64,000 nt of DNA from an uncultured Christensenellaceae bacterium (lineage in GTDB: Bacteria > Bacillota > Clostridia > Christensenellales > DTU072). Below the pieces are notes generated by a model, which was not told the origin of the DNA, searched no databases, and saw nothing but the letters and a program-made list of their open reading frames with translations. The position numbers and the translations under genes are program-made. The stretch lies in NCBI GenBank assembly GCA_964613035.1, contig CAZTFQ010000002.1:21901-85900 (forward strand), written 5' to 3'. Shown here piece by piece: positions 20,066 through 20,210 of the stretch. Each line of letters begins with the position of its first letter. The first letter of the stretch is position 1.

Positions 20066-20067
20066 AA

Positions 20068-20193
20068 GGATGCGGAGAGGAATTGAAACTACAAGAGCGC
20101 ACGCGATTTAGGTTTCAGCTGTCCGCAGCAGGATGCGGAGAGGAATTGAAACTACAAGAGCGCAAGCGATTTAGGTTTCATTCCCCGCAACCA
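20068..20193 (+). repeat. Tandem 63-nt direct repeat (2 copies) whose second copy ends in a mimic of the tRNA-fMet 3' end
   Basis: GGATGCGGAGAGGAATTGAAACTACAAGAGCGCA(C/A)GCGATTTAGGTTTCA occurs at 20068 and 20131 with 1 mismatch in 50 nt. Copy 2 continues TTCCCCGCAACCAA, resembling the tRNA 3' end CCCCCCGCAACCA. Confidence 0.7.
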
Positions 20194-20210
20194 AATCAAA
20201 AGAATCATAT

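Follow-up and report, generated by a model that had tools for sequence, protein, structure and literature searches.

What is a copy of a tRNA 3' end doing between two tRNA genes, behind a sequence that itself occurs twice? The window (the whole stretch of DNA analysed here, 64 kb long) is a bacterial chromosome segment with gyrB, gyrA, mnmG and pyrG, in which such an arrangement separates an initiator tRNA gene from the tRNA gene that follows. The original prediction, made from the sequence of this spacer, offered two readings: an att-site duplication left by an integrase that had targeted the tRNA, or a duplicated small RNA or processing element. Here we ask which reading accounts for the spacer, and whether it resembles any known tRNA-linked repeat.

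Organization of the tRNA operon

Sequence reading, ARAGORN and Rfam give the same order on the + strand: promoter, tRNA-fMet, a 145-nt spacer, tRNA-Met, a 19-nt spacer, tRNA-Glu and terminator (Table 1). The tRNA at 19990-20065 is the initiator, because it carries a C1xA72 mismatch (cmscan alignment) and an A11:U24 pair. Its anticodon stem has A29:U41 in place of the usual third G:C pair, with G30:C40 and G31:C39 kept (alignment reading). CCA is encoded in all three tRNAs of the operon. No terminator-like site was seen within the 20066-20210 spacer, and the first terminator follows only after tRNA-Glu. Named homologues of one gene of the window come from Clostridia and Acutalibacteraceae.

Table 1. 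Coordinates of the tRNA operon and of the repeat in its first spacer (positions in the window)
Feature	Position	Strand	Description
Promoter-like site TTGACA-17-TATTAT	19945..19973	+	strong, sigma-70-like, 11/12 matches, ~16 nt upstream of tRNA-fMet
Initiator tRNA-fMet (CAT)	19990..20065	+	ARAGORN, Rfam; CCA encoded; C1xA72 mismatch, A11:U24 pair
Direct-repeat copy 1, CCCCGCAACCAAA	20055..20067	+	final 11 nt of tRNA-fMet and 2 nt of trailer (AA)
Unit 1, 51 nt	20067..20117	+	5' arm UGCGGA at 20071-20076; TGAAAC...GTTTCA stem; 22-nt loop
Tail 1 (linker) GCTGTCCGCAGC, 12 nt	20118..20129	+	decayed copy of the tRNA-fMet 3' strand, CCGCA-C left; UCCGCA at 20122-20127
Unit 2, 51 nt	20130..20180	+	1 mismatch against unit 1
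Tail 2, TTCCCCGCAACCAAA	20181..20195	+	holds direct-repeat copy 2 (20183-20195); CCGCA at 20185-20189, then ACCA
Residual spacer TCAAAAGAATCATAT	20196..20210	+	with the preceding AA, putative 17-nt 'empty-site' spacer
tRNA-Met (CAT)	20211..20287	+	ARAGORN, Rfam; anticodon loop UUCAUAC, elongator-type
tRNA-Glu (TTC)	20307..20381	+	ARAGORN, Rfam
Intrinsic-terminator-like hairpin	20382..20417	+	closes the tRNA operon; repeat and terminator searches

Repeat units and the copied tRNA 3' end

The 64-kb window contains just two exact matches to CCCCGCAACCAAA, at 20055-20067 and 20183-20195, against an expectation of 0.04, and two or more matches were obtained in 0/100 shuffles. This exact 13-nt direct repeat of the tRNA-fMet 3' end is not due to chance. 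Specifically, the end of the second module (a module being a unit with its tail) is identical to tRNA-fMet over CCCCGCAACCA(AA), at 13/13 positions, and the identity stops at TT upstream. The near-copy of the tRNA 3' end that had been proposed to follow unit 2 is therefore an exact copy, and the proposed layout of tRNA 3' end, unit, unit and tRNA-3'-end-like sequence is confirmed beyond chance.

Unit 1 begins 2 nt past the CCA of tRNA-fMet. The original prediction had two 50-nt units that differ at 1 nt; the single mismatch stands (50/51 identical, C/A at unit position 36), but the repeat search extends the unit to 51 nt. Likewise, the '63-nt tandem repeat' has the period that its name implies, with unit starts 63 nt apart, but it is not a clean tandem, as a linker lies between the units. 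The array reads tRNA end, unit, decayed end, unit, exact end. The inverted repeat TGAAAC...GTTTCA was correctly placed inside both units, and the unit loop reads UACAAGAGCGCA[A/C]GCGAUUUAG. The tRNA-end copies of both modules have their complement in the 5' arm of the unit, GGAUGCGGA.

Allowing up to 3 mismatches, the first 23 nt of the unit are found in the window only at the two units (expected 0.00). The array is absent from the TRF output, probably because it has only ~2 copies and a diverged linker.

The two tails differ at no fewer than 6 of 14 positions, compared with 1 of 51 for the two units (Poisson P ~5e-7 under equal rates). Tails that have diverged far more than the units rule out that one recent unequal crossover between the direct repeats produced the array. 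A quasi-palindrome correction of tail 1 was also rejected, as the two tails fit the reverse complement of the 5' arm to the same degree (9/13, by eye).

Two coding readings of the spacer were judged to be chance. A 71-aa ORF that spans the repeat has its start within the tRNA, and a 13-codon ORF present in each unit (ATG at 20070 and 20133; MRRGIETTRA[H/Q]AI) is preceded by an AAGGA that abuts the ATG without spacing. Outside the operon, CTCTCCGCAT at 19849-19858 matches the reverse complement of unit positions 4-13 (ATGCGGAGAG) exactly. This sequence sits 6 nt past the stop of a 301-aa gene, where synteny with relatives ends, and with E = 2.6 window-wide it may well be a chance match.

Folding of the modules

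Module 1 (unit 1 and linker) has a predicted fold of -22.2 kcal/mol (z -3.5), closed by UGCGGA/UCCGCA. Module 2 has a predicted fold of -24.9 kcal/mol (z -4.7), in which UGCGG (20134-20138) pairs with CCGCA (20185-20189), followed by ACCA; GGAA/UUCC pairs as well and stacks on the internal UGAAAC/GUUUCA stem. The 51-nt units without their tails have no significant fold (z -0.65 and -1.3); therefore, it is the tail that closes the helix. The module 2 end, ...CCGCA-ACCA, is exactly as in tRNA-fMet. In these folding models, the closing helix of each module imitates an acceptor stem.

The complementary strand of the modules folds worse, at -14.7 and -20.6 kcal/mol. The copied tRNA end is thus built into the module structure, and the strand asymmetry favours the transcribed strand. 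In an alternative fold, both modules join in one long hairpin of -51.4 kcal/mol (z -5.5), compared with -47.1 kcal/mol for two separate hairpins. The long hairpin has a central junction hairpin, UCCGCA-GCAGGA-UGCGGA, which shows GGA in its hexaloop.

Two roles suggested by hairpins of this kind were considered and rejected. The modules are no terminators or attenuators, as a U-tract follows neither hairpin. A CsrA-sponge role, by analogy with the rRNA-linked E. coli repeats RrA/B/F (see below), is unsupported: there are 6 GGA motifs compared with 3.4 expected, an enrichment that is not significant (P = 0.08).

Searches for homologues and the orthologous locus

In GTDB representative genomes (185,579 species representatives) and JGI metagenomes, the exact 20-mer ATGCGGAGAGGAATTGAAAC had three matches, all by chance, and it had none in IMG/VR; the chance matches fall in an intergenic stretch of a Micrarchaeota MAG contig and in a phage-like ORF. 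Two further unit patterns had no match in IMG/VR viral contigs. By blastn, phages, plasmids and E. coli genomes gave matches to the tRNAs only, or nothing, and the spurious 71-aa ORF, used as a protein probe, returned only an unrelated high-GC tRNA-fMet. In the window, no unit copy exists elsewhere, and both copies are at the tRNA-fMet locus. These negatives argue against a widespread repeat family; they concern the searched collections and the window, and say nothing on the source genome beyond it. The original prediction had set itself against a REP-like repeat with no tRNA link; no such repeat emerged, as there is no further copy in the window or the searched collections.

The upstream 301-aa gene has orthologues in relatives (77% and 54% protein identity), with which the window is syntenic up to that gene. 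Past it, the relatives (L018-L021) carry unrelated genes and no tRNA. The tRNA operon thus lies at a synteny breakpoint and marks where a variable region begins or ends. Compared over window 19843-20600, the relatives that have the 14.6-19.8 kb block (L018-L021) also lack the four-helix-bundle gene and the cytolysin-like gene described below, as well as the tRNA operon. No orthologous or homologous repeat locus was found among the searched collections and relatives, and hence no covariation, empty site or copy-number polymorphism of the repeat.

A tRNA-Trp-linked insert in relatives

A different insert next to a tRNA gene is present in relatives. At L004 1306-1540 and L029 1-235, tRNA-Trp is linked to an insert that has a 206-nt period and, at its borders, an exact 20-nt repeat of the tRNA 3' end. 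The insert occurs in these two independent assemblies and is absent in L022 and L025. A G-rich 5' arm of the insert pairs with the copied tRNA end in a fold of -84.4 kcal/mol (z -7); after its own terminator, the insert has the closing stem and three hairpins, in a cloverleaf-like arrangement. It has no match in Rfam.

The insert is comparable to the window repeat in coming from the same broad lineage, in the exact direct repeat of a tRNA 3' end and in the closing stem formed by a 5' arm. Unlike the window repeat, it is a single copy of ~186 nt, has another sequence and its own terminator, and is linked to tRNA-Trp rather than tRNA-fMet.

Genes and repeats downstream of the operon

The gene that follows the operon (20593-20943) encodes a 116-aa four-helix-bundle protein (PF05635, 23S_rRNA_IVP/Avd family) with thousands of homologues; for the best 120, identity is 83-100%. 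We compared its loci in the window (20382-20943) and in L004, L006-L016, L022, L023, L025, L027 and L029. Wherever the upstream sequence suffices, the gene lies directly after the CCA end of a tRNA, which is tRNA-Glu here and tRNA-Trp, -Gln or -Tyr elsewhere. A conserved leader of ~200 nt is always found 5' of the gene (window 20382-20592). In the alignment, the leader consists of the tRNA terminator, a ~25-bp hairpin, a second terminator-like hairpin and a promoter, in this order. The ~25-bp hairpin is made of TTCACTC/AGTGAA heptads (window 20418-20449 and 20473-20504), and its loop carries a second copy of the 3' arm of the terminator. The gene contexts downstream vary among loci. The gene and its leader look like a tRNA-linked cassette, of which we found no description in a literature search. 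In L016 (2024-2503), the leader is tandemly duplicated with a period of ~230-239 and 93-98% identity, and the second leader copy opens with GCCA-AAAAA, as if bearing a tRNA 3' end.

Further downstream, an 877-aa ORF (21120-23753) has a thiol-activated cytolysin domain. It contains 9-nt periodic repeats at 23249-23647 (AACGGTGGT / CGGCGGTAA), which imply a Gly-rich tripeptide-repeat region. On the - strand at 26983-29950, a BrxL-like Lon protease (479 aa) adjoins an AAA+ ATPase (508 aa); among the scanned ORFs, nothing else was recognised as a BREX component.

Alternative explanations

The spacer could be the remnant of an integrase att site (CIME-like), left when a tyrosine integrase acted in the tRNA-fMet 3' end, duplicated 13 nt, and the interior was later deleted to ~115 nt. 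The exact 13-nt direct repeat starts inside the tRNA-fMet 3' end as this would require, the tRNA cluster is placed exactly at the end of synteny with the relatives, and a filled and an empty site are known for the tRNA-Trp-linked insert. However, the 115 nt that the direct repeats enclose contain no remnant of an ORF, and Pfam recognises no integrase or recombinase domain in any tested ORF of 200 aa or more, or in the 116-aa gene, between 12.2 and 33.8 kb; the 702-aa ORF at 33815-35923 was checked against NCBIfam only. None of the three tRNA 3' ends has a distal copy in the window. Moreover, a single integration predicts neither the decayed third tRNA-end copy in the middle nor a unit 5' arm that is complementary to the repeat, and for a tRNA-targeting integrase the sublocation would be unusual, with a 13-nt identity limited to the acceptor 3' strand. 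The att-remnant option of the original prediction, with the integrase remnant that it led one to look for, has thus gained no positive support, and we consider it unlikely. Another alternative is a small palindromic mobile or REP-like element that landed twice beside the tRNA. In its favour, each module is quasi-palindromic, its terminal inverted repeats (~15-19 nt) being imperfect, and a target-site duplication would be one reading of the 13-nt direct repeat. The inverted repeats do not, though, terminate the segment that the direct repeats bound, and such an element is hard to reconcile with two copies in 64 kb, both at the tRNA-fMet locus, and with a 20-mer that has nothing beyond chance matches in the representative genomes, JGI metagenomes and IMG/VR. 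A mobile element is accordingly very improbable. Decayed tandem duplicates of tRNA-fMet that have lost most of their internal sequence would explain why the tails stem from a tRNA 3' end; it is common for initiator tRNA genes to occur in tandem, and tRNA-like internal segments are kept in the tyrT repeat of E. coli (by eye). Against such pseudogenes, the unit body compares with tRNA-fMet, -Met and -Glu at chance level (470-495 of 500 shuffles score as well), no tRNA covariance model matches 20066-20210 at E up to 10, and ARAGORN, with its threshold lowered to 80%, still reports nothing in the spacer, while at 70% it gives noise on both strands only. We regard a pseudogene origin as highly improbable.

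In a further reading, the modules would be selected small RNAs acting in trans, as described for RrA/B/F and 3'ETS-leuZ; freed from the tRNA precursor, they might mimic the acceptor end of the initiator tRNA or act as sponges of proteins or small RNAs. The units are 98% identical though the tails have diverged, the transcribed strand folds better, the junction hairpin offers GGA in its hexaloop, and some E. coli tRNA-linked repeats and tRNA spacers are functional or protein-bound (PMC8144298; PMC10710024). On the other hand, the near-identity of the units may merely mean a recent copy, GGA motifs are not significantly enriched, conservation is seen in none of the searched collections, Rfam has no match, and most of the E. 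coli repeats have no known function (PMC8144298). A selected trans-acting role is, on balance, quite unlikely. Least credible of all are an assembly artefact and a degenerate mini-CRISPR array. The source is apparently a draft contig (149 kb), but a read is longer than the 63-nt period, and the copies can be told apart by one base and by their flanks. Each unit ends in ATTGAAAC, which gives sub-threshold matches to CRISPR direct repeats (E 3-8), but these score 12-13 bits compared with Rfam gathering scores of 37-45 and stem from the ATTGAAAC motif only; the spacers would be 22 nt long and identical but for 1 nt, there is one full 'repeat' only, and cas genes are absent among the ORFs examined.

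Proposed processing and origin

We favour, with moderate confidence in the reading as a whole, its processing and its origin, an internal transcribed spacer of the type of the E. coli tRNA-linked repeats (TLRs), which tRNA maturation enzymes would cut out. Two modules of ~63-65 nt lie in one operon between the initiator tRNA and the next tRNA gene, and the spacer would be transcribed from the tRNA promoter within the tRNA precursor. By mimicking an acceptor end, the modules may be taken for substrates and excised by the tRNA maturation enzymes. For module 2, RNase P would cut 5' of the helix at ~U20134, and 3' trimming would proceed back to the CCA, the route of CCA-encoding precursors in Firmicutes (B. 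subtilis tRNA maturation). Module 2 has the terminal helix of tRNA-fMet and ACCA, so that RNase P and 3' trimming would excise a hairpin of ~60 nt. A similar cut at ~U20071 may free the 3' trailer of tRNA-fMet. Excision would thus part tRNA-fMet from tRNA-Met and set free one or two ~60-nt hairpin RNAs, probably as by-products. The other option of the original prediction, a duplicated small RNA or processing element, comes close to this TLR-type spacer in that the modules are acceptor-like hairpins in a tRNA operon.

When one direct repeat and the insert are removed, a spacer of 17 nt is left, compared with 19 nt between tRNA-Met and tRNA-Glu. Because the remainder is like the neighbouring spacer, the ancestral state was probably an ordinary short spacer, into which ~128 nt would have been inserted, or duplicated, at the tRNA-fMet 3' end. 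The amplification from one copy to two was not one recent unequal crossover. The contrast in divergence between units and tails means either a history of several steps or units that were homogenised or conserved. Such conservation or homogenisation, at this one locus, would be the sole hint of function, and of a role that the TLR-type explanation does not supply. The locus itself is a small, probably near-neutral feature of the spacer.

Comparison with known systems

TLRs were reportedly described in E. coli by Egan and Landy in 1978 and by Rudd in 1999. In the searchable literature, we found no report of them outside E. coli and its relatives. Stenum et al. 2021 review 22 TLRs at ten E. coli loci, with 1-5 per locus (PMC8144298). 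Their hallmark is a place in tRNA or rRNA operons and a unit whose final 18-19 bp are the same as the 3' end of the upstream tRNA or rRNA (PMC8144298). Most have no known function, but the three rRNA-linked TLRs RrA/B/F are processed small RNAs that bind Hfq and CsrA (PMC8144298). In E. coli K-12 tyrT/tyrV, we find three copies with a 178-bp period after tyrV and a further one, 66% identical, between the two genes; all of them overlap the tRNA 3' end. In the fold of E. coli rttR, the 5' sequence GGGGAAGGAU pairs with the copy of the tRNA-Tyr 3' end, AUCCUUCCCC, which is followed by CACCACCA. This pairing of a 5' arm with the copied tRNA end is an observation of the present analysis on rttR and lies outside the published TLR definition; it is found in rttR, in both window modules and in the L004 insert.

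By the published definition, the window repeat lies in a stable-RNA operon, directly 3' of a stable-RNA gene, and has two tandem units (63-nt period) within the range of 1-5. Module 2 ends in the 3' end of the upstream tRNA, whereas module 1 keeps only CCGCA-C. The identity comprises 11 nt of mature tRNA-fMet and 2 nt of trailer. These 13 nt fall short of 18-19 bp, and the repeat is therefore TLR-like by architecture and not a strict member. That it is of the TLR type by architecture is, in our judgement, very probable.

Like the window repeat, E. coli TLRs come directly after a tRNA gene, can separate two tRNA genes and form tandem units; their units end in a copy of the upstream tRNA 3' end with CCA, and their 5' part pairs with that copy. 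The window units differ in being 63-65 nt rather than ~100-180 nt long, in having no sequence similarity to the E. coli repeats (blastn) and in an identity of 13 nt instead of 18-19 bp, which is vestigial in module 1. The window host is Firmicute-like (encoded CCA, Clostridia-named homologues) and not an enterobacterium. The window unit body is without a tRNA trace, unlike the tyrT repeat with its tRNA-like internal segments.

The att repeats of CIMEs and tRNA islands are alike in that a short direct repeat of a tRNA 3' end brackets foreign sequence, but the interior in the window is 115 nt, has no integrase, is itself repeated and is complementary to the repeat. Spacer RNAs of tRNA operons can act in trans, such as the 3'ETS-leuZ sponge and the Hfq-bound metZWV intergenic regions (PMC10710024; PMC8144298). 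With these and RrA/B/F, the window spacer shares predicted co-transcription with tRNA or rRNA, in one case likewise in an initiator-tRNA operon. Their partners are proven by experiment, whereas for the window spacer neither a partner nor conservation nor a significant motif enrichment emerged from the analysis.

The closing-helix rule is common to three mutually unrelated sequences, the window repeat, the tRNA-Trp insert and the E. coli tyrT repeat. This suggests that tRNA 3' ends have a general capacity to form TLRs, and perhaps to have them processed, which would make TLRs more than an enterobacterial curiosity. Acceptor-stem mimicry is a concrete, testable hypothesis that follows from the rule, and the main value of the locus lies in this cross-phylum structural rule for TLRs. 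It is very unlikely that TLR-type modules are a general, convergent use of the tRNA maturation machinery for making small hairpin RNAs, which act in trans here. If so, two stable RNAs of ~60 nt would mimic the initiator acceptor end, with its weak U:A terminal pair and then ACCA, and might serve as decoys for enzymes or toxins that act on that end, or as sponges that track the activity of the tRNA promoter. Compared with the systems described so far, the window repeat is a new TLR-type case, from another lineage, with another sequence and a shorter unit, and no new kind of system.
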